This document shows, piece by piece, positions 6,006-15,380 of a DNA stretch of 64,000 bases. Both the position numbers and the translations under genes were made by a program. The stretch lies in sequence record MN850564.1; one strand, written 5' to 3'. Numbering within the stretch: position 1 is the stretch's first letter; every line of letters starts with the position of its first letter. Source of the DNA: Escherichia phage humlepung. The notes under the pieces were generated by a model. That model was not told the DNA's origin, did no database searches, and saw only the letters and a list, made by a program, of their open reading frames with translations.

Positions 6006-6889
6006 TATGCCTCCCCTGCTGGGTTAACTGTAACTGTCGACGCATTAGATGTTACAGAGCCACCTGCGCCAGTCACTACACAGGTGTAGCTTCCTGCATC
6101 AGCAGTGGTTGCACCTTCTTTGGTGTAAGTTGCAGCAGTTGCGTCTGGGATGACTTCCTCACCTTTCTTCCACTGATAACCTGTCGCACCTGTTGCCACA
6201 ACATTCAGTGTTAAGGTCTCACCTTCAGTGATTTCTTGATTGGTTGGTTGCTGAGTGATTACCGGAAGTGCATTCACAGTAACTGTTGCTGCATCTGAGG
6301 TAACACTTGTTCCACCCTCTCCAGATACAACACAAGTGTATGAACCAGCGTCAGAAGGTGCTACTGACTGTTTTGTGTAAGTTGCAGAATTGGCACTAGG
6401 GATGTCCTCACCATCCTTCTTCCACTGATATCCAGTGGCGTTAGTTGCTAGAATGCTTAGAGTAAGTGTGCCACCCTCATTGACTGTTTGACCTGTCGGT
6501 TGCTGAGTAATTGCTGGTGGCTTAATAGCATCCTTCAACTTAGCATTCAACATTGAGAACGGCTTAACTCTTGCCAACCATTCACAGTAAATTGTGTCAA
6601 CATCTTTACCATTGATGATTGCATACTGCAAATCCATGAAGAAATCAGCAGTTCTCATCTGTGCACCAACACTGTAAAGCAATTCATCACTAAATGGAAC
6701 TTTGCAGTCTGGTTTGTAGTCAAACTTCTCAACTTCTGCAATATCAGCTTCAGGCCAATATGAACTATAGGTAAGTGGTAAAATAGCCTCTTGATATGTT
6801 CTAAAATCATACCTCTTACCAGCCTTTACATTTGCAATGAAACCCTTCACAAAATCTTTGAAGTCTGGGTAAGTCTTTGCTTTAATCAT
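6005..6889 (-). CDS. protein with two C-terminal tandem Ig-like domains
   Basis: Two ~90-aa repeats (TQQPT...GYQWKK...GSYTCVV) typical of Ig/I-set-like folds; N-terminal domain paralogous to 6886-7257. Confidence 0.55.
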   Translation of the reverse strand: MIKAKTYPDFKDFVKGFIANVKAGKRYDFRTYQEAILPLTYSSYWPEADIAEVEKFDYKPDCKVPFSDELLYSVGAQMRTADFFMDLQYAIINGKDVDTIYCEWLARVKPFSMLNAKLKDAIKPPAITQQPTGQTVNEGGTLTLSILATNATGYQWKKDGEDIPSANSATYTKQSVAPSDAGSYTCVVSGEGGTSVTSDAATVTVNALPVITQQPTNQEITEGETLTLNVVATGATGYQWKKGEEVIPDATAATYTKEGATTADAGSYTCVVTGAGGSVTSNASTVTVNPAGEA

Positions 6890-8967: not shown

Positions 8968-10383
8968 ATGAGCGAATTATTTAAACATGCGCACCTTCAT
9001 GCAGGTCGAACTGAAAATGGTGCTGTAAACCATACTTCATCAATGTCTGCTCTTGTAGACTTTTACAAAGCTGCTGGTTCGAGCCGTAGCAATGTAGAAA
9101 TCTTACCAGACCTGTTCTACAAAGCTTTGCGTGAGGATGTTGATGTTGCAGTTCGTATTTTACTGCATATGCGAGATGTACGAGAAGGTATGGGTGAGCG
9201 TAAAGCTTTCCGAACTGTTTTACTTAAAGCAATTGAAGATAAGATTTTAGAACCTACACAGGTTCTTCGCATTATGGATAAGATTGCAGAACTTGGTCGT
9301 TTTGATGACTTCAAAATCTTCGTAGGTACTCGTTTTGAGACAGATGCCTTCAAACATTTAGAAGCAGCATTACTAGACCCTGCAACAGCAGGTTTGGCGG
9401 CTAAGTGGTTACCACGAGTCAAACCACGTCATAAGCAGTTTGTAAAACGTTTCTGCAAGTTTGCCAACTTGAGTGAGAAAGAGTACCGCACACTGTTGTC
9501 TGCACTATCTGATACAGTTGAGCAAAAAATCTCTGCTAATGAGTTTGGTAAGATTGACTACAGTAAGATTCCTTCACTTGCTGCTGCACGTTACCAAAAA
9601 CTGTTTAACCGTAAAGATGGAGAGCGTTACAAAGCTTACATCGAGTCCTTATCAAAAGGTGAGACTAAGATTAACGCTGGTGCTGTTTACCCATACGATG
9701 TGATTAAATCTGTCAAGTATGGTAATGCAGATGTTGCTAATGAGCAGTGGAAAGCACTACCAAACTGGATGGCAGAAGGTGAAAACATCTTGTGTATGTC
9801 TGATGTATCAAGTTCAATGTCTTGGGTGAATTTTGGCTCCATTACTGCTCTGGATATTGGTGTATCACTTGCCTTGTATGTAGCAGAACGCAATACAGGT
9901 TGCTTTAAGAATGAGTTAATGGTTTATTCAACAAACCCTCACTTCATCGAACTGAGTGGTGATTTACGAAACCGTCATCGTCAGGTGATGCGACACGTTG
10001 AATATGGCTCAACTAACTTACAAGCAGCTTTTGACCGCATTCTTGAAACAGGTAAAAGAAACAACTTGACTCAGAAAGATATGCCAAGTAAGCTTATCAT
10101 CTTCTCCGATATGGAGTTCAATCAGGTTGATGGAGCTAACGGTCGTACAAACTTTGAAGCAATTCAGAGTAAGTACAAAAAAGCTGGATATGAGATGCCA
10201 CAACTGGTATTCTGGTACTTAGCAAACCGTAATGGTACTTGCGAAGTATCTGTTAAGGATAACGGTGTAGCAATGGTATCAGGGTTCTCTCCAGCCACTT
10301 TAAAAGCTCTGCTTGGTGGTGAGAAGTTTGACCCAATCAGTGTAATGCTCAAAGCAGTAATGATTGACCGTTATATCTGGTAA
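8968..10383 (+). CDS. Ro60/TROVE-like protein with C-terminal von Willebrand factor A domain (DUF2828-like N-terminus by recollection)
   Basis: MIDAS-like DVSSSMS...T...IIFSDMEFN resembling Ro60 vWA (DVSASM / FTDCETN); N-terminal TENGA...S..ALVDFY motif. Confidence 0.6.
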   Translation: MSELFKHAHLHAGRTENGAVNHTSSMSALVDFYKAAGSSRSNVEILPDLFYKALREDVDVAVRILLHMRDVREGMGERKAFRTVLLKAIEDKILEPTQVLRIMDKIAELGRFDDFKIFVGTRFETDAFKHLEAALLDPATAGLAAKWLPRVKPRHKQFVKRFCKFANLSEKEYRTLLSALSDTVEQKISANEFGKIDYSKIPSLAAARYQKLFNRKDGERYKAYIESLSKGETKINAGAVYPYDVIKSVKYGNADVANEQWKALPNWMAEGENILCMSDVSSSMSWVNFGSITALDIGVSLALYVAERNTGCFKNELMVYSTNPHFIELSGDLRNRHRQVMRHVEYGSTNLQAAFDRILETGKRNNLTQKDMPSKLIIFSDMEFNQVDGANGRTNFEAIQSKYKKAGYEMPQLVFWYLANRNGTCEVSVKDNGVAMVSGFSPATLKALLGGEKFDPISVMLKAVMIDRYIW

Positions 10384-10402
10384 AAAGTTTTAAAAAGGGT
10401 AT

Positions 10403-10431
10403 TGACAATGTGTTTAATACCCTTTAATATG
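10403..10431 (+). promoter_or_regulatory. Sigma70-like promoter TTGACA-17-TAATAT inside inverted repeat AAGGGTATT/AATACCCTT
   Basis: Exact -35 consensus, 17-nt spacer, TAATAT -10; upstream of tRNA array. Confidence 0.6.
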
Positions 10432-10548
10432 TTCTACATAGAAGCGAAATGAGAGCTTTTCTAAGATACTGAAAAATATTTTAAAAAAGTTCTTGACAAC
10501 CACTAAAAAATAATGTTAAAGTGGTTACATAGAGTTTGAAAAGTTTAT

Positions 10549-10625
10549 CTCTGTTTAGCTCAGCTTGGTAGAGCGTTCCGTTTGGGGCGGTAAGGCCGGA
10601 GGTTCAAGTCCTCCAACAGAGACCA
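10549..10625 (+). tRNA. tRNA-Pro (anticodon TGG)
   Basis: 7-bp acceptor ctctgtt/aacagag, D-arm gctc/gagc, T-loop TTCAAGT, encoded CCA. Confidence 0.75.
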
Positions 10626-10632
10626 AATTAAT

Positions 10633-10710
10633 GTTCCAGTAGACAAAATGGTAAAGTCACCACTCTTTCAAAGTGGATATTTGAGGGTTCAAATCCCTTC
10701 TGGAACGCCA
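10633..10710 (+). tRNA. tRNA-Glu (anticodon TTC)
   Basis: Acceptor gttccag/ctggaac, anticodon loop cTTTCaa, T-loop TTCAAAT, CCA. Confidence 0.7.
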
Positions 10711-10715
10711 GTTTT

Positions 10716-10791
10716 GACAGAAGACCAATTACAGCAAACTTAATCTTATTCATCTGAAGGTAAATCGGACAAAGAAGAGATTTGGTCTGGT
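10716..10791 (+). repeat. Structured repeat element copy a (5' GACAGAAGACCA ... 3' TGGTCTGGTC)
   Basis: Member of four-copy family with conserved CAGAAGACC...TACAGCAA...GGTCTGG and covarying flanks. Confidence 0.5.
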
Positions 10792-10801
10792 CATTAAGAA
10801 T

Positions 10802-10878
10802 TGCGGGTATAGAGAAAGGGCGTCTCACATGTCTCATTAGCATGGTATCGGCAGGTTCGACTCCTGCACCCGCCTCCA
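10802..10878 (+). tRNA. tRNA with CAT anticodon (Met or Ile2)
   Basis: Anticodon stem catgt/gcatg, loop cTCATta, T-loop TTCGACT, CCA; 1:72 mismatch. Confidence 0.6.
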
Positions 10879-10882
10879 ATTT

Positions 10883-10946
10883 TGCAGAAGACCGTATTCA
10901 GCAACAAAATACTTTTTGCGGATAAAAGAAAAAACACGGTCTGGCA
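10883..10946 (+). repeat. Structured repeat element copy b (5' TGCAGAAGACCGT ... 3' ACGGTCTGGCA)
   Basis: Same family; flank covariation tGC/GCa. Confidence 0.5.
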
Positions 10947-10955
10947 ATGTATTAA

Positions 10956-11029
10956 GGTTAGGAAGCACATAAGGTATGTGCGGTCGCCTGTTAAGCGAAT
11001 GGCACAGGGTTCGAATCCCTGACTAACCG
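10956..11029 (+). tRNA. tRNA-Asn (anticodon GTT)
   Basis: Anticodon loop ctGTTaa, T-arm caggg-TTCGAAT-ccctg, acceptor 6/7 paired; no encoded CCA. Confidence 0.65.
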
Positions 11030-11040
11030 CAAAATTAAAT

Positions 11041-11128
11041 GTGTCGTTATCCCGTAGATGGTAGCGGTGGGGACTGTAAATCCCTTGTCATTGAGACTCG
11101 GTAGGTTCGACTCCTACACGGCACACCA
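11041..11128 (+). tRNA. tRNA-Tyr (anticodon GTA), type II with long variable arm
   Basis: 85 nt, acceptor gtgtcgt/acggcac, loop ctGTAaa, T-loop TTCGACT, CCA. Confidence 0.7.
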
Positions 11129-11133
11129 ATAAA

Positions 11134-11210
11134 GGCTATGTAGTTTAACTGGAGAAAATACTCCCCTGTCACGGGAGATGATGTGAGTTCAAGTCTCATC
11201 GTAGCCGCCA
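11134..11210 (+). tRNA. tRNA-Asp (anticodon GTC)
   Basis: Acceptor ggctatg/cgtagcc, loop ctGTCac, T-loop TTCAAGT, CCA. Confidence 0.7.
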
Positions 11211-11237
11211 ATTTTGAGAGGGCTATTTAGCCCCTCC

Positions 11238-11272
11238 CTTAAAGAGTTCTTACGAGTATTCTTTAAGGGAGC
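11238..11272 (+). repeat. Hairpin CCCTTAAAG-(agTTCTTACGAGtatt)-CTTTAAGGG
   Basis: 9-bp perfect stem; loop motif TTCTTACGAG recurs at 14277-14286. Confidence 0.5.
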
Positions 11273-11348
11273 AGAAGACCAAATACAGCAAGAATGTATG
11301 AAATTTCAAGCCAATTTAATTTTGAAAATTTAAAACTTGGTCTGGCTC
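11269..11348 (+). repeat. Structured repeat element copy c (5' GAGCAGAAGACCAA ... 3' TTGGTCTGGCTC)
   Basis: Same family; flank covariation GAGC/GCTC. Confidence 0.5.
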
Positions 11349-11354
11349 AACAAA

Positions 11355-11493
11355 TTTACAGAAGGCCGTTTACAGCAAAACTTAAACAATCTATTTCTCC
11401 GGTAAAGAAAAGGCGAAGGTTCGATTCCTTCACTCGGCAGATGTCGAGTTGGTGTAATGGTAGCACTTAAGATGATAAACAACGGTCTGGTAA
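11355..11493 (+). ncRNA. Candidate structured ncRNA (element copy d): terminal stem TTACAGAAGGCCGTT/AACGGTCTGGTAA enclosing tRNA-like T-arm and D-arm hairpins
   Basis: Internal gaagg-TTCGATT-ccttc hairpin with T-loop consensus, acceptor-like hairpin, D-arm-like gtgtAATGGTAgcac; no complete tRNA fold. Confidence 0.3.
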
Positions 11494-11639
11494 TTACCTT
11501 TGTAGATAAGTTATTAAGCTTACTTGTGAGTATGCGACCACAAAGGGTGAATGGGTAAATTCTAGATTTAAACCCAAAAAGGCACATCGCTACAGACCTT
11601 AAGCAAGTCTGGGTAGCTTATCTACAAAGATAATTTAAT

Positions 11640-11715
11640 GGAAGTGTAGCAGAATGGTGATGCGGCAGACTTTTAATCTGACAGGCGATGGGTTCGAATC
11701 CCTCCACTTCTACCA
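11640..11715 (+). tRNA. tRNA-Lys (anticodon TTT)
   Basis: Acceptor ggaagtg/cacttct, loop cTTTTaa, T-loop TTCGAAT, CCA. Confidence 0.65.
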
Positions 11716-11719
11716 ATAT

Positions 11720-11796
11720 GGTTCAGTCGCAGATAAGGTAATGCAAGGGTCTCATAAGCCCTATGAATGTGGGTTCGATTCCCATCTGAACCTCCA
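11720..11796 (+). tRNA. tRNA with CAT anticodon (Met or Ile2), second copy
   Basis: Perfect acceptor ggttcag/ctgaacc, loop cTCATaa, T-arm gtggg-TTCGATT-cccat, CCA. Confidence 0.65.
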
Positions 11797-11797
11797 A

Positions 11798-11873
11798 GCT
11801 GGTATAGTTAAGAAGGTTATAACACTCCCCTGATAAGGGAACATCGGTGGTTCGATTCCACCTACCAGTACCA
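11798..11873 (+). tRNA. tRNA-Ile (anticodon GAT)
   Basis: Loop ctGATaa, T-arm ggtgg-TTCGATT-ccacc, CCA. Confidence 0.65.
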
Positions 11874-11888
11874 ATTTCAATAAAGTTG

Positions 11889-11917
11889 TTGACATTGAGA
11901 TGTGACTACTTTATAGT
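11889..11917 (+). promoter_or_regulatory. Sigma70-like promoter TTGACA-17-TATAGT inside the tRNA region
   Basis: Exact -35, 17-nt spacer, TATAGT -10. Confidence 0.55.
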
Positions 11918-12121
11918 AACCTTAGTTTTCGTTGCGTAGCGTCTATTTTGCAAATTTAAAATAAATGCAAACGACAATGTTTTTCTGGCAGTAGCTTGAT
12001 AGGCTAAACACCAGTGAGGTCTTCCAATCCCTCATCAAAGAATTTGGCGTACTCGCCCACGGTATGATTAATAAGGTGGGCATCTTTAAGGGCTTTCTAA
12101 GAGAGTCTTTAAAGATAATTA

Positions 12122-12203
12122 CGGGGCGTATCTCAGCGGTCTTCTAAACCGCCGTTAACCGAGTAAGTGGAGTATGCGGGTTCGAGTCCTGCCGCCTCGA
12201 CCA
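12122..12203 (+). tRNA. Atypical tRNA-like gene, anticodon stem-loop gcggt-cTTCTaa-accgc (TCT, Arg-like), no recognisable D-arm, 23-nt extra segment
   Basis: 7-bp acceptor cggggcg/cgcctcg, T-arm gcggg-TTCGAGT-cctgc, CCA; only 7 nt between acceptor and anticodon stem. Confidence 0.4.
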
Positions 12204-12346
12204 ATTTAGTTAGCAGATTACTTAGACGACCTTAGCGGGTCTTCCTGTAGGGAGGTGGTCTGTATCTCATGTTTTCCAGAACATGTAAATAATCTGAGAA
12301 GGGGCTTTACAGTGTTGAGATAATACGGTAAGCTTCGAATTATAGT

Positions 12347-12429
12347 ATGGGACGATATTAAGACTCTAAGGCATGAGCAACGGCTTCCAACACCGTTTCA
12401 AAGGGGTTCAACTCCTCCGTCCCATGCCA
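12347..12429 (+). tRNA. Atypical tRNA-like gene, anticodon loop compatible with CCA (Trp) closed by a C-A pair, or 9-nt loop
   Basis: Perfect acceptor atgggac/gtcccat plus CCA, T-loop TTCAACT; D-region irregular. Confidence 0.35.
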
Positions 12430-12442
12430 AAGTCTTATTAGG

Positions 12443-12530
12443 GGTAGGTAGCGGCTAATGGTAGCCAAACTGTCTTGAAAACAGTTGCCACTGTAGAGAT
12501 ACGGTGAGGGTTCGACTCCTTTACTTACCG
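12443..12530 (+). tRNA. tRNA-Ser (anticodon TGA), type II
   Basis: 88 nt, stem actgt/acagt with loop cTTGAaa, long variable arm, T-loop TTCGACT. Confidence 0.65.
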
Positions 12531-12787
12531 CCTAATAAGATTTAAAGCCAAGCTTCATTCGGATGTTGCTTTGGTATACCGCGTGTATTGTTGTACGCAC
12601 TGATAAAGCACCTAGTAGGTGTCACGGAGAAGAGATAATATCAAGCTCTCCAAAGGTTCTAGTCACCGGATTAAACAAGACTATGCAAAGACCTTTTTAG
12701 GTCTTTTTAGAGGGCTTCTAAGGTTATTACAGCTTGTTGTGGAACCTTGTTGCTTAGGTTCTTAGAAGTTCTCTAAAAAGATTTAAT

Positions 12788-12865
12788 GGGAGATTGACGG
12801 TAATTGGTAAACCTACCATCCTTAGAAGTTGGTGTTTGAGGGTTCGAATCCCTTGTCTCCTACCA
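12788..12865 (+). tRNA. tRNA with TAG anticodon (Leu-type anticodon but short, type-I length)
   Basis: Acceptor gggagat/gtctcct with G-U pairs, loop ctTAGaa, T-arm gaggg-TTCGAAT-ccctt, CCA. Confidence 0.5.
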
Positions 12866-12872
12866 AATTAAT

Positions 12873-12948
12873 GCAGGTGTAGCAAAATGGTTATGCGGCT
12901 GACTCTTAATCAGTAAGACGATGGGTTCAATTCCCTCCACCTGTACCA
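12873..12948 (+). tRNA. tRNA-Lys (anticodon CTT)
   Basis: Stem gctga/tcagt, loop ctCTTaa, T-loop TTCAATT, CCA. Confidence 0.55.
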
Positions 12949-12954
12949 GACATT

Positions 12955-13030
12955 GGGGTCATAGTTTATATGGTTAAAATTCGAGTTTTGCAAACTTGGG
13001 AACTGAGTTCAATTCTCAGTGACTCCACCA
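12955..13030 (+). tRNA. tRNA-Ala (anticodon TGC)
   Basis: G3:U70 wobble pair in acceptor (Ala identity element), loop ttTGCaa, T-arm ctgag-TTCAATT-ctcag, CCA. Confidence 0.75.
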
Positions 13031-13036
13031 ATTAGT

Positions 13037-13111
13037 GCATCCATAGTTTAAACGGGAAAATTACAGTCTTCCAAACTGAGGTTGAGGGTTCGATTCCCTC
13101 TGGATGCTCCA
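13037..13111 (+). tRNA. tRNA-Gly (anticodon TCC)
   Basis: Perfect acceptor gcatcca/tggatgc, loop ctTCCaa, T-arm gaggg-TTCGATT-ccctc, CCA. Confidence 0.7.
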
Positions 13112-13117
13112 AACAAT

Positions 13118-13194
13118 GCTGCTTTCGTATAATTGGCTATTACACATCCCTTGTAAGGATGGAAATGCAGGTTCGAGTCCTGTGAGCAGCACCA
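13118..13194 (+). tRNA. tRNA-Thr (anticodon TGT)
   Basis: Perfect anticodon stem catcc/ggatg, loop ctTGTaa, T-loop TTCGAGT, CCA. Confidence 0.75.
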
Positions 13195-13199
13195 ATTCA

Positions 13200-13283
13200 G
13201 AGGTCAAGTGAAAGACCGCTGGTGTCAACTGAAGACCGTAACAAATTCCACGGAGTTGAGTTAGCGGCACAACTTCAGACCTC
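13200..13283 (+). repeat. Stem element AGAGGTC...GACCTCT enclosing a GAAGACCGTAAC motif
   Basis: 7-bp terminal inverted repeat; internal CTGAAGACCGTAACAAA resembles the 5' arm of elements a-d. Confidence 0.4.
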
Positions 13284-13289
13284 TTTCAC

Positions 13290-13364
13290 ACTCGCTTAGT
13301 TTATATGGTAAAACACCACCCTTACAAGATGAAGAAAAAGGTTCAAGTCCTTTAGTGAGTACCA
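13290..13364 (+). tRNA. tRNA-Val (anticodon TAC), tentative isotype
   Basis: Acceptor actcgct/agtgagt, loop cTTACaa, perfect T-arm aaagg-TTCAAGT-ccttt, CCA; anticodon stem has mismatches. Confidence 0.55.
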
Positions 13365-13365
13365 T

Positions 13366-13443
13366 GTTCCAGTATCCCAATTGGCAGAGGATGCAAGCTC
13401 AAACCTTGTATTAGTGACGGTTCGAATCCGTCTTGGAACACCA
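13366..13443 (+). tRNA. tRNA with CAA anticodon (Leu-type anticodon, type-I length)
   Basis: Acceptor gttccag/ttggaac, stem gcaag/cttgt, loop ctCAAac, T-arm gacgg-TTCGAAT-ccgtc, CCA. Confidence 0.55.
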
Positions 13444-13462
13444 ATTTAAAGAGGCTATTTAG

Positions 13463-14020
13463 ATGAGATATTTGAAGTATGCTTCATGGATTTTCCTAGC
13501 TTTACTAGAGCCATTTGCAGCAACCCTAGCAGTCATCTTAGCACCTTTCGTAGTTCCATTCTACAGTGAGAAGAAAGGACACTTACCTTTCGGGTTCAGA
13601 TGGATGGAGACATATGACAACCCAATTGATGGTGATGAAGGTCACGTTAAAAGATGGGCTAATATTAGATGGATTGGTAAACTAGGTGTCTACATGCAAA
13701 GAGTTGGATGGCTCTGGAGAAACAAAGCTTATAACTTCTCTTACCATGTATTAGGAAGAGATGTAAAAGATGTTACTAAGTGGAAAGGTAATATCAACGT
13801 AAGTTCTAACCCTGAAGATAATCAGACTGGTTATCTCCTAATGTGGAACAGGAATGCTTGGGGATTATTCGCTTTTATCCCATCAATTAAAATCTTTGGT
13901 AAACAATTTTACTGGAGAATTTATATTGGATGGAAACTAAAAAGTGTTGTCCCAGAAGAAAGAGCATTCTCAAGGGAAAGAGTTATGTTGGCATTCTTTA
14001 TTCATCCACTGAGAAAGTAA
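13463..14020 (+). CDS. hypothetical membrane protein (185 aa, Trp-rich) encoded inside the tRNA array
   Basis: ATG with AAAGAGG RBS; N-terminal hydrophobic segment. Confidence 0.55.
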   Translation: MRYLKYASWIFLALLEPFAATLAVILAPFVVPFYSEKKGHLPFGFRWMETYDNPIDGDEGHVKRWANIRWIGKLGVYMQRVGWLWRNKAYNFSYHVLGRDVKDVTKWKGNINVSSNPEDNQTGYLLMWNRNAWGLFAFIPSIKIFGKQFYWRIYIGWKLKSVVPEERAFSRERVMLAFFIHPLRK

Positions 14021-14028
14021 AGATTTAA

Positions 14029-14104
14029 AGGGGATTAGTTTACAAGGTTAAAACCTCGGTCTTTGAAATCGAAGAAGTTGGTTCAATTCCAACATCCCCC
14101 GCCA
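14029..14104 (+). tRNA. tRNA-Gln (anticodon TTG)
   Basis: Loop ctTTGaa, perfect T-arm gttgg-TTCAATT-ccaac, CCA; 1:72 mismatch. Confidence 0.6.
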
Positions 14105-14106
14105 AT

Positions 14107-14185
14107 GCTCCATTACTCCAATTGGCAGAGAGGCCAGACTTAAAATCTGTGTTATGTATCGGTTCGAATCCGATATGGAGTACCA
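14107..14185 (+). tRNA. tRNA with TAA anticodon (Leu-type anticodon, type-I length)
   Basis: Loop cTTAAaa, T-arm atcgg-TTCGAAT-ccgat, CCA; D-arm resembles the CAA tRNA. Confidence 0.5.
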
Positions 14186-14190
14186 AATTT

Positions 14191-14266
14191 AGCGGTATAG
14201 CATAACTGGCAATGCAGCAGTCTCTGAAGCTGTCTTATTAAGGTTCAAATCCTTATGCCGCTGCCA
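14191..14266 (+). tRNA. tRNA-Gln (anticodon CTG), tentative
   Basis: Acceptor agcggta/tgccgct, D-stem gcat/atgc, loop ctCTGaa, T-arm taagg-TTCAAAT-cctta, CCA. Confidence 0.55.
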
Positions 14267-14267
14267 C

Positions 14268-14294
14268 TTCTAAGGATTCTTACGAGAGTCCTTA
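14268..14294 (+). repeat. Hairpin with loop motif TTCTTACGAG (second copy)
   Basis: aaggaTTCTTACGAGagtcctt; motif shared with 11250-11259. Confidence 0.45.
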
Positions 14295-14297
14295 AAT

Positions 14298-14373
14298 GTG
14301 GCCTTATCATAAATGGTAATGACCCATGCTGTGAACATGGTCTATACGGGTTCAAATCCCGTAGGTCACCCCA
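14298..14373 (+). tRNA. tRNA-His (anticodon GTG)
   Basis: Perfect anticodon stem ccatg/catgg, loop ctGTGaa, T-arm acggg-TTCAAAT-cccgt, CCA. Confidence 0.7.
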
Positions 14374-14379
14374 ATTTAT

Positions 14380-14455
14380 AGTCCAAGTAGCTTATATGGT
14401 TAAAGCGCGTGTCTGAAAAACATGAGAAGAGGGTTCAAATCCCACTGGACTACCA
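14380..14455 (+). tRNA. tRNA-Phe (anticodon GAA)
   Basis: D-stem gctt/aagc, loop ctGAAaa, T-loop TTCAAAT, CCA; acceptor register uncertain by 1 nt. Confidence 0.6.
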
Positions 14456-14471
14456 ATTTCAAAGGTGCTTA

Positions 14472-15206
14472 ATGAAAGAGATGACAGAACAAGGTAAGGA
14501 GATTTTTAATCTCTTAAAAACCGGTAAAGGGTTTTCTAACCCACTTATTACTGGTGCAGCAGTTCTCGGTGGAACCGTAGCTGCCTCTACATCACTTGTA
14601 AGCTCTATTAGCTCTGTAACAGACCCTACAATGAAGGAGAAGCTTGTTGCTGCTGGACTTACAACAGTCCTTCTAAACAGCTTTACAACAATCCTGACAA
14701 GCACTACAGCAACCACTAAGACCCTAACAGACTACGGTCAAAAGTCTATTGATGAGTTTTCATCACGTATGCAGGTAGCAAAGGGATATTCCAATGTTAT
14801 GGGTGCAGCAGGAGAACAAGTTGGTTGTACACCATTCAGTGGTATTATGGGTGTTGCTACAGAGTATGGTCAAAAAGCTATTGACATGATTAACAGTACA
14901 CTAGATAGTGTTAATGGTGTGTTAAGTGACTTACAAGACGCTATTGATGAGGGTCTTGATACTGTTTCTGATTTAGCTAATCAGGCTGTTAGTAAGATTA
15001 ATGAAGGTATTTCAAAGATTACAGCTTATGCAGATGAAGTTGTGCAGATGATTGAAGAAGAAGCTGCCCTTATTGCAGAGTACCTTAAAACGAATATCAA
15101 TGGGTTCTTAGCAGGTATCTTACCAGACTGGTTTGATGATGCTTGTAAAACTGGTGTAATTGATGCTATTGCAACACCAGAAATGAAGAACGCATTACAG
15201 AAATAA
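14472..15206 (+). CDS. hypothetical protein (244 aa, Ala/Thr/Ser-rich)
   Basis: ATG at 14472 with AAAGG RBS; the track start at 14409 would overlap tRNA-Phe. Confidence 0.5.
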   Translation: MKEMTEQGKEIFNLLKTGKGFSNPLITGAAVLGGTVAASTSLVSSISSVTDPTMKEKLVAAGLTTVLLNSFTTILTSTTATTKTLTDYGQKSIDEFSSRMQVAKGYSNVMGAAGEQVGCTPFSGIMGVATEYGQKAIDMINSTLDSVNGVLSDLQDAIDEGLDTVSDLANQAVSKINEGISKITAYADEVVQMIEEEAALIAEYLKTNINGFLAGILPDWFDDACKTGVIDAIATPEMKNALQK

Positions 15207-15207
15207 T

Positions 15208-15300
15208 GGAAGATTAACCCTAAAAGGTAAGGGAGCAGTTTGCTAAACTGCCAGTAGCTGAGAAATCGGTGTACCAGTTCAAGTCTGGTATCTTCCTCCA
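15208..15300 (+). tRNA. tRNA-Ser (anticodon GCT), type II
   Basis: Perfect acceptor ggaagat/atcttcc, stem gcagt/actgc, loop ttGCTaa, long variable arm, CCA. Confidence 0.7.
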
Positions 15301-15304
15301 ATTT

Positions 15305-15380
15305 GAATCCGTGACAGAAATGGCTATGTGCCTGTCTGCAAAACAGGTTTATAAGGGTTCGAGTCCCTTCGGATTCTCCA
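15305..15380 (+). tRNA. tRNA-Cys (anticodon GCA)
   Basis: Perfect acceptor gaatccg/cggattc, stem cctgt/acagg, loop ctGCAaa, T-arm aaggg-TTCGAGT-ccctt, CCA. Confidence 0.75.

Follow-up and report, generated by a model that had tools for sequence, protein, structure and literature searches.

Four structured elements in the tRNA cluster of Escherichia phage humlepung belong to a family of probable Y RNA-like RNAs found beside DUF2828 genes of phages

Escherichia phage humlepung (sequence record MN850564.1) is a Felix O1-like phage (Felixounavirus), and the window that we analysed, a stretch of 64,000 nucleotides (nt) of its DNA, carries on the plus strand a cluster of 24 tRNA genes (10549-15380) with four structured elements at its start. 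These elements, which we call copies a, b, c and d, are the subject of this work together with the product of an open reading frame (ORF) on the same strand, from which they lie 330-1110 nt downstream. The region is 99.6% identical to Escherichia typing phage 1 and the element region is matched by 264 related phage records; copy d is present at a coverage of at least 80% in 245 phage records, with an RNA annotation in none. In GenBank records the elements are either unannotated or mis-annotated. A first-pass annotation, made from the letters of the window, had described a four-copy stem family with a common core, and we found all of the copies where it had placed them, with limits that could be refined as follows:

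10715-10793, plus strand: copy a, short form; outer stem 10715-18/10790-93, AGA 10719-21 opposite G 10789, inner stem 10722-28/10782-88, CAGCAA 10732-37
10882-10947, plus strand: copy b, short form; outer stem 10882-85/10944-47, AGA 10886-88 opposite G 10943, inner stem 10889-95/10936-42, CAGCAA 10899-904
11269-11348, plus strand: copy c, short form; outer stem 11269-72/11345-48, AGA 11273-75 opposite G 11344, inner stem 11276-82/11337-43, CAGCAA 11286-91
11356-11493, plus strand: copy d, long form; outer stem 11356-59/11490-93, AGA 11360-62 opposite G 11489, inner stem 11363-70/11481-88 (one G·U), CAGCAA 11373-78

All four copies share one layout, in which a 4-bp outer stem is followed by an asymmetric, purine-rich internal loop of AGA opposite G and by an inner helix of 7-8 bp (AGRCCNN/NNGGUCU), with a single-stranded (N)UWCAGCAA directly 3' of the 5' strand of the inner helix. 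Minimum free energy (MFE) folds computed with RNAfold gave an identical basal architecture for a, b, c and d. The string AGAAGRCC-N30-60-GGTCTGG occurs three times against 0.00 expected (the interior of copy d is longer), and CAGAAGRCC occurs seven times against 0.92 expected, with four of the seven clustered at copies a-d; a chance origin of the repeated motif is excluded.

The outermost stem bases had been reported to covary among the copies, and this was borne out and extends to 4 bp. The outer pairs are UGAC/GUCA, UUGC/GCAA, GAGC/GCUC and UUAC/GUAA in the window, and all four pairs are formed in 32/32 distinct variants from 17 Felixounavirus-like loci, where seven combinations were found (UUAC/GUAA, UGAC/GUCA, GAGC/GCUC, UUGC/GCAA, GAGC/GUUC, GGGC/GCUC and GGGC/GUCC, G·U forms included) and pairing mostly ends at the fifth position. 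Among orthologues of copy b, UUGC/GCAA alternates with UUAC/GUAA, a clean compensatory change, and the inner stem contains two more covarying positions (AA/UU versus GU/AC). G·U pairs are present in copy d of the window (AGGCC/GGUCU) and in two further loci, L012 and L013. The Felixounavirus loci all retain four copies in syntenic positions, with the exception of one genome, L008 (IMGVR_UViG_2706796742_000001, ~6450-6540). Copy a has two unrelated interiors, exchanged wholesale between lineages over a constant basal module, and this exchange fits the modular design of Y RNAs. The proposal of the first-pass annotation that selection acts on a folded structure, and not plain duplication, is supported by these data and is much strengthened by the homologues described below. 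Searches with Rfam covariance models (cmscan, E≤1 over 5.3 kb and E≤10 over 0.94 kb) returned tRNA and chance-level matches alone, for example Dicty_Class_I_RNA with E 0.07-0.8. Readings of the elements as a K-turn, a hammerhead, a hairpin ribozyme, an integron attC site or a BHB intron were dropped on inspection of the sequence, as the core motifs are absent.

The ORF upstream of the elements is described by the following feature line:

8968-10383, plus strand: gene for a Ro60-like protein of 471 aa; Pfam DUF2828 and DUF7788, PHROG 850 'RNA-binding protein', predicted Ro60 fold

DUF2828 and DUF7788 are its only Pfam matches, and a search for homologues at E≤1e-5 identified 2482 members of the DUF2828, PHROG 850 family. 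An AlphaFold2 model built from 37 homologues had a pLDDT of 88 and was compared with the Protein Data Bank (PDB) using Foldseek. This revealed that the top 11 matches are all Ro60/TROVE structures (E 1e-7 to 4e-6; TMq 0.48-0.65 over ~520-575 columns, with 0.65 over ~545 columns), including Xenopus Ro60-RNA complexes, D. radiodurans Rsr and the Ro60 of Thermus phage phiLo (9kop and 9l5y), and that the matches below these 11 are to vWA/MIDAS domains only. The MIDAS motif D279-x-S281-x-S283 is invariant in the 37 homologues. On the strength of this model, the ORF product is predicted to fold as a Ro60/TROVE ring joined to a vWA/MIDAS domain.

Related elements were sought in 80 viral loci encoding DUF2828 relatives and three intermediate loci, of which 68 count as distant. 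A Yersinia phage whose protein is 55% identical carries three elements of the form GC-ACA-GGACUNN…NNAGUCC-A-GC with UWCAGCAA, which retain the bulge and have compensatory changes in the inner helix, and a 143-kb contig with a protein of 50% identity (L083) carries five directly after the gene, three of them with a module made up of a T arm, an acceptor-like stem (AS) and a D arm (T-AS-D). The core common to the distant elements is AG-N8-CAGCAA … complementary strand-CU-G, and the consensus of the family is A-N-W-W-G-R-N5-U-W-CAGCAA…Y-C-W-G. In place of a permissive stem scanner, which gave 13 extra matches in the window, we used a motif test with fixed spacing and a covariance model. Across 596 kb of distant DUF2828 loci, the 5' motif AG-N8-C[AC]GCAA occurs 75 times on the gene strand versus 5 times on the opposite strand, and 42 of the 75 are followed within 200 nt by a perfectly complementary 7-mer and then G, versus 1.1 expected from controls with random 5-mers.

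The covariance model, R1, describes the short form; its seed stems were selected for pairing by regular expression (regex), and its E-values are rough, as calibration was shortened. At E≤1, 62/62 matches lie on the gene strand, and in the window R1 detects copies a, b and c only (53.3 bits and E 1.6e-8 for a, the same values for b, and 44.4 bits and E 1.7e-6 for c). At E<0.01 there are 46 matches in 39 of the 68 distant loci, and 38 of the 46 fall within 600 nt of the DUF2828 gene, either just upstream of it or from 19 nt downstream. A check of covariation with homologues gave, in the model-derived alignment, an inner helix that is 99.2% paired with double changes at 6/7 pairs; the first inner pair is A-U in 43 members, U-A in 8 and G-C in 3, and the U-A and most of the G-C forms are absent from the regex-selected seeds. 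As a control we searched 650 kb of unrelated viral DNA (IMG/VR), picked by the bare 14-nt 5' motif from among the matches listed and consisting mostly of chance matches, and R1 was significant there in one locus, L092, which is also the sole control locus with a DUF2828 relative. Taken together, these results strongly support the structured RNAs as a real family.

Whether the structure is formed by RNA or by a DNA cruciform had been left open in the first-pass annotation. Miniature inverted-repeat mobile elements, recombination sites or cruciforms could account for multiple copies with terminal inverted complementarity and variable interiors, and for an interior replaced wholesale between lineages as in copy a. 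Elements of this kind acting at the DNA level are nevertheless a highly improbable explanation, as the family is strand-specific both in its R1 matches and in the 75 to 5 distribution of its 5' motif, the opposite strand would have C·A mismatches in place of its G·U pairs, its flanks are complementary and are not direct target-site duplications, and its positions are syntenic in the Felixounavirus loci. The strand specificity and the G·U pairs argue for an RNA on the plus strand and against a cruciform.

The setting of the elements among tRNA genes could suggest a different role, as punctuation in the processing of a tRNA operon. The features that bear on it are:

10402-10430, plus strand: sigma70-like promoter 1, from a consensus scan alone, 10/12 matches
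10493-10522, plus strand: sigma70-like promoter 2, from a consensus scan alone, 10/12 matches
10633-10710, plus strand: tRNA-Glu (ARAGORN, Rfam)
10802-10878, plus strand: tRNA-Met (ARAGORN, Rfam)
10956-11030, plus strand: tRNA-Asn (ARAGORN, Rfam)
between tRNA-Asn and tRNA-Asp, inside 10633-11210, plus strand: tRNA-Tyr (ARAGORN, Rfam)
11134-11210, plus strand: tRNA-Asp (ARAGORN, Rfam)

The Ro60-like ORF ends 19 nt before the first promoter-like site, and no plus-strand site resembling an intrinsic terminator (a GC-rich hairpin with a U tract) was found at any of copies a-d. Copy a begins 4 nt and copy b 3 nt past the CCA of the preceding tRNA, and each stops 8 nt short of the next (tRNA-Met at 10802 and tRNA-Asn at 10956; about 10 nt in the first-pass annotation). 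Hairpins that fill inter-tRNA spacers in this way could guide RNase E, RNase III or RNase P, or guard tRNA ends, but the other spacers of the same cluster are mostly 1-10 nt long and have no such element, and spacer hairpins leave the invariant CAGCAA and the tRNA-like domain of copy d unexplained. Furthermore, 29 of the 39 distant loci with significant R1 matches have no tRNA gene within ±4 kb, and there the element follows the DUF2828 gene, so that the family is linked to the protein gene and not to tRNAs. We therefore regard operon punctuation as very unlikely, and the closeness of copies a and b to tRNAs is incidental to the family, most distant members of which have no tRNA nearby.

Several other sequences in and around this cluster were noted. 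The spacer between tRNA-Asp and copy c (11211-11268) contains two adjacent hairpins, GAGGGCUAUUUAGCCCCUC and a hairpin with 17-bp arms at 11234-11271; this spacer differs by hundreds of bases among Felixounavirus genomes, and in one of them (L007) copy c is shifted by ~450 nt. A multibranch hairpin of ~145 nt (11492-11635; RNAfold -44.3 kcal/mol), closed by a 22-bp inverted repeat, lies between copy d and tRNA-Lys, and its apical hairpin, CUAC-AGAC-CUUAAGCAA-GUCU-GG-GUAG, looks like the family motif in collapsed, miniature form; the Citrobacter-phage-like locus L013 differs in this region. Further downstream, weak tmRNA-type matches below threshold (29 bits against a gathering score of 47) were found at 11815-11999, downstream of a strong promoter-like site at 11889-11917, and a tRNA-like sequence at 12122-12200 scored 31.7 bits against the Rfam tRNA model, above the gathering score, yet was not called by ARAGORN.

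Copy d differs from the short forms in its interior, the MFE fold of which contains these features:

11394-11466, plus strand: circularly permuted tRNA-like domain in copy d
11394-11410, plus strand: V hairpin
11415-31, plus strand: T arm, loop UUCGAUU
11432-49, plus strand: closed acceptor-like hairpin, 7 bp, loop AGAU
11452-66, plus strand: D arm, loop AAUGGUA, after U-G

In the acceptor-like hairpin the 3' strand of the acceptor comes first and the 5' strand second. ARAGORN found no tRNA in copy d in its native order, and the Rfam tRNA model gave 22 bits, below the gathering score of 29, over model positions 7-64 only; exchanging the two parts of d on either side of a cut in the AGAU loop makes ARAGORN call a tRNA, with the basal module as its 'intron'. 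Three long forms from distant phages likewise yield an ARAGORN tRNA only after circular permutation. As MAFFT gave no structural alignment, we compared the long forms in an explicit table of their T, AS and D arms, which revealed that T, AS, 1-2 nt and D are contiguous in ten long forms, which represent six lineages; no two of these ten have the same AS stem sequence, and each AS stem is fully paired. By inspection alone, the T loop UUCGAUU and D loop AAUGGUA of d contain the usual target residues. Among bacterial Y RNAs, the YrlA subfamily is defined by the order 5' strand-V-T-closed acceptor-D-3' strand (PMC4201824; 10.1101/312249). Most YrlAs have been likened to circularly permuted tRNAs in which the acceptor stem is closed; in the YrlA of S. 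Typhimurium the T stem-loop spans positions 33-49, the acceptor stem 50-64 and the D stem-loop 67-81 (10.1101/312249). Copy d follows this order from its V hairpin to its D arm. Both the permuted domain and the Ro60-like neighbouring ORF had been overlooked in the first-pass annotation, as had the incidental nature of the closeness to tRNAs.

An alternative view would make copy d a tRNA pseudogene that has decayed or been rearranged, the remnant of a tandem tRNA, and would leave copies a-c as unrelated hairpins. Part of d does reach the 22 bits given above, one GenBank record has a 129-nt tRNA-Thr-GGT at this place, and d has recombined, T arm to T arm, with tRNA-Lys in L008. Such an origin has very little probability in our judgement, given that the T-AS-D order and fully compensated, lineage-specific acceptor-like stems are kept both in Felixounavirus and in unrelated phages, and that this domain always lies inside the basal module that is also found in a-c. 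The GenBank record in question, MZ726792.1 (phage ASO1B, L084), places its 'tRNA-Thr-GGT', from tRNAscan-SE, at 2532-2660, corresponding approximately to window positions 11311-11439; it covers the 3' part of c together with the V hairpin, T arm and acceptor 3' strand of d, and is likely a mis-annotation. In L008 the T arm of d is fused to the 3' end of tRNA-Lys and the 3' half of d and the long hairpin are deleted, which apparently arose by recombination between the T arms of d and tRNA-Lys.

Variants of the family were also observed in the distant loci. Just downstream of the DUF2828 gene in L027, L047, L052, L064, L067 and L073 there is a divergent CUGCAA subfamily, AAGAUGC-AUU-CUGCAA … GUAUCUU-G, which R1 misses, and in four of these loci (L047, L052, L064 and L073) the interior of ~190 nt shares the conserved block cugggUUuagaaguaaaugcccccgyaucuug. 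The family member in L062 (6329-6428) has a topology opposite to that of copy d: inside its basal stem a D arm, an anticodon-like arm and a T arm follow one another as in an ordinary tRNA, and the basal stem takes the place of the acceptor stem and not of the anticodon side. The tRNA cluster of L083 has a TnpB/Cas12f-like gene (OrfB_IS605; 10393-11440) at its far end.

From the structure of the elements and their genomic association, we propose that copies a-d are probably Y RNA-like small non-coding RNAs, with YrlA-like and YrlB-like members, that partner DUF2828-type Ro60-like phage proteins and form a new and widespread family. All four copies lie close to a Ro60-type gene on the same strand, and in all four the 5' and 3' ends are paired, with a conserved helix beside an internal loop; both are characteristics of Y RNAs. 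The pairing of this RNA family with a DUF2828 protein most likely recurs in many unrelated phages and was previously undescribed.

A number of observations weigh against this proposal. The link between RNA and protein is drawn from genomic association and analogy, and the kinship of the ORF product to Ro60 lies at the level of the fold only, with Pfam TROVE unmatched and no Ro60 retrieved from PDB sequences by phmmer with the ORF or by hmmsearch with the 37-sequence profile; as sequence methods are blind to this kinship, these phages would have been outside the scope of the 2014 survey, whose starting point was TROVE annotation. The family consensus lacks the putative Ro-recognition motif of known Y RNAs, which is GGUCCGA in animals and GNCGAAN0-1G or CGAA in bacteria and phiLo; the C-A-GAAG of Felixounavirus is one insertion from a known Ro motif but is not conserved in distant members. 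No match to a Y RNA-type family was returned by cmscan, although which Y RNA models Rfam 15 contains is unconfirmed. Another 29 of the 68 distant loci have no significant R1 match, several of which show the CUGCAA variant by eye, and copy d is truncated in L008. Inner-stem pairing in the seed alignment of R1 was imposed by the regex, and support therefore rests on the complementary 7-mer test, the model-derived alignment and the 650-kb control. Finally, gp130 of the Felixounavirus Bas63, a structurally Ro60-like protein encoded directly upstream of tRNAs, counters the ppl defence system, and does so alone, whether expressed from a plasmid or moved into T7 (10.1101/2024.10.10.617714). From genus and synteny we infer that the ORF at 8968-10383 is the orthologue of gp130. 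RNAs of the a-d type are thus not needed for the anti-ppl activity, and may gate or retarget it or serve another function.

Several of these observations would also be expected if the elements were structured RNAs tied to the DUF2828 gene and yet not strict Y RNAs, acting as autoregulatory or stabilising elements in untranslated regions (UTRs) or as small RNAs whose CAGCAA pairs with a target. The absence of the canonical Ro-binding motif and the action of gp130 on ppl without the RNAs agree with this, as does the UTR-like position of many copies in distant phages, which precede the gene start by 46-148 nt or follow the stop at a distance of 19-25 nt. We nonetheless consider it unlikely, as the copies of the window lie beyond two promoters and among tRNAs, outside the mRNA of the gene, up to five copies occur at one locus (L083), and a full tRNA-like domain as in YrlA, present in the long forms, has no rationale in a UTR.

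If copies a-d are Y RNA-like partners of the Ro60-like protein, their production and action could proceed as follows. The elements would be transcribed with the tRNAs from the promoters at 10402-10522, and copies a and b would be freed as RNase P and the enzymes that process tRNA 3' ends excise the neighbouring tRNAs, after which an exonuclease would shorten the released RNAs as far as the terminal stem. As a counterpart of the bulged, conserved helix in known Y RNAs, the basal module (outer stem, AGA×G loop, the helix that begins with A-G/C-U, and CAGCAA) may be the docking site for the Ro60-like ring, and the variable interior would then be an effector, regulatory or gating module. The interiors of a-c are simple hairpins, like that of YrlB, and the interior of d is a circularly permuted tRNA mimic with a closed acceptor (V, T, AS and D arms), like that of YrlA, which could recruit a tRNA-binding factor or serve as a tRNA decoy. 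A bolder scheme, which we offer as a speculation that is possible but doubtful, holds that DUF2828 proteins and this RNA family are an unrecognised phage-wide branch of Ro-Y ribonucleoproteins, in which the tRNA-shaped members, circularly permuted tRNAs whose closed acceptor stems have 7 bp as in copy d, are decoys or tethers against host defences that target tRNA or degrade nucleic acids and might even yield split tRNA-like molecules when RNase P opens them, and that the Felixounavirus RNAs are made by hijacking the tRNA processing of their own operon.

Ro60-Y RNA particles are conserved from bacteria to humans and their functions are poorly defined; to our knowledge, few bacterial Y RNAs have been tied to a partner. 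The elements described here are testable candidates for the RNA partners of DUF2828 (PHROG 850), a large family of phage proteins whose function is unknown and of which Bas63 gp130, taken as a member by genus and synteny, has recently been proven by experiment to counter a bacterial defence system. They also provide a new conserved RNA module, AG-N8-CAGCAA…CUG, whose recognition is open to mutational dissection, as well as further natural examples of circularly permuted tRNA mimics, and they account for unannotated or mis-annotated sequence, including the spurious 129-nt 'tRNA-Thr', in ~250 sequenced Felix O1-like therapeutic and typing phages.

By description only, the elements can be likened to the species 1 and 2 RNAs of T4, which are small stable RNAs other than tRNAs that are co-transcribed and co-processed with the phage tRNAs, and for which we know of no Ro-like partner. 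The arrangement of copy d recalls the circularly permuted tRNA genes of Cyanidioschyzon merolae (Soma et al. 2007, as cited in 10.1101/312249): in both, as far as that secondary account describes the algal genes, the 3' half comes first, a loop closes the acceptor stem, and the two termini form an extended helix on the anticodon side. In copy d, unlike in C. merolae as described there, the conserved basal module stands in for the anticodon-side helix, and machinery for circularisation or splicing is not known from bacteria or from this phage.

Our literature search found no paper describing the elements, and the sole link to them is a 2024 preprint (PhageMaP), which speculates that some annotated tRNA genes are Y RNAs and locates no Y RNA (10.1101/2024.10.10.617714). 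The locus of Bas63 gp130 that it describes, which lends our proposal an independent experimental context, belongs to the same genus and has the same synteny, with a Ro60-like gene directly upstream of a tRNA block; our candidates, in contrast, are unannotated elements between tRNA genes and not annotated tRNA genes themselves.

The closest known counterparts are the YrlA and YrlB RNAs of Rsr, encoded in the Salmonella rsr-yrlBA-rtcBA operon (PMC4201824). There, as here, the RNAs are adjacent to the protein gene on the same strand, more than one is present per locus, their ends pair into a stem with an internal loop, and one has a V-T-closed acceptor-D domain that the others do not have. The present family differs in that its partner is a DUF2828/DUF7788 protein related to Ro60 at the fold level only, in its basal motif (AG-N8-CAGCAA…YCUG and not GNCGAAN0-1G, with no Rfam model matching), and in that its RNAs are embedded in a tRNA operon and are known from sequence alone. 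Phage Ro60 proteins with adjacent YrlA-like RNAs are known for phages with TROVE annotations, including the YrlA of a mycobacteriophage (PMC4201824), and φRo60 of Thermus phage phiLo has been characterised biochemically with its RNAs Yrl1 and Yrl2, which are recognised by a bulge containing CGAA (PMC12135203). These systems and the one described here share a phage protein with a Ro60 fold, predicted in our case, and adjacent small RNAs of the stem-bulge-stem type. Their proteins are recognisable TROVE proteins and their RNAs contain CGAA, neither of which applies to the present family; the latter extends to many other phage groups, including Felixounavirus, a Yersinia phage and contigs of jumbo size.

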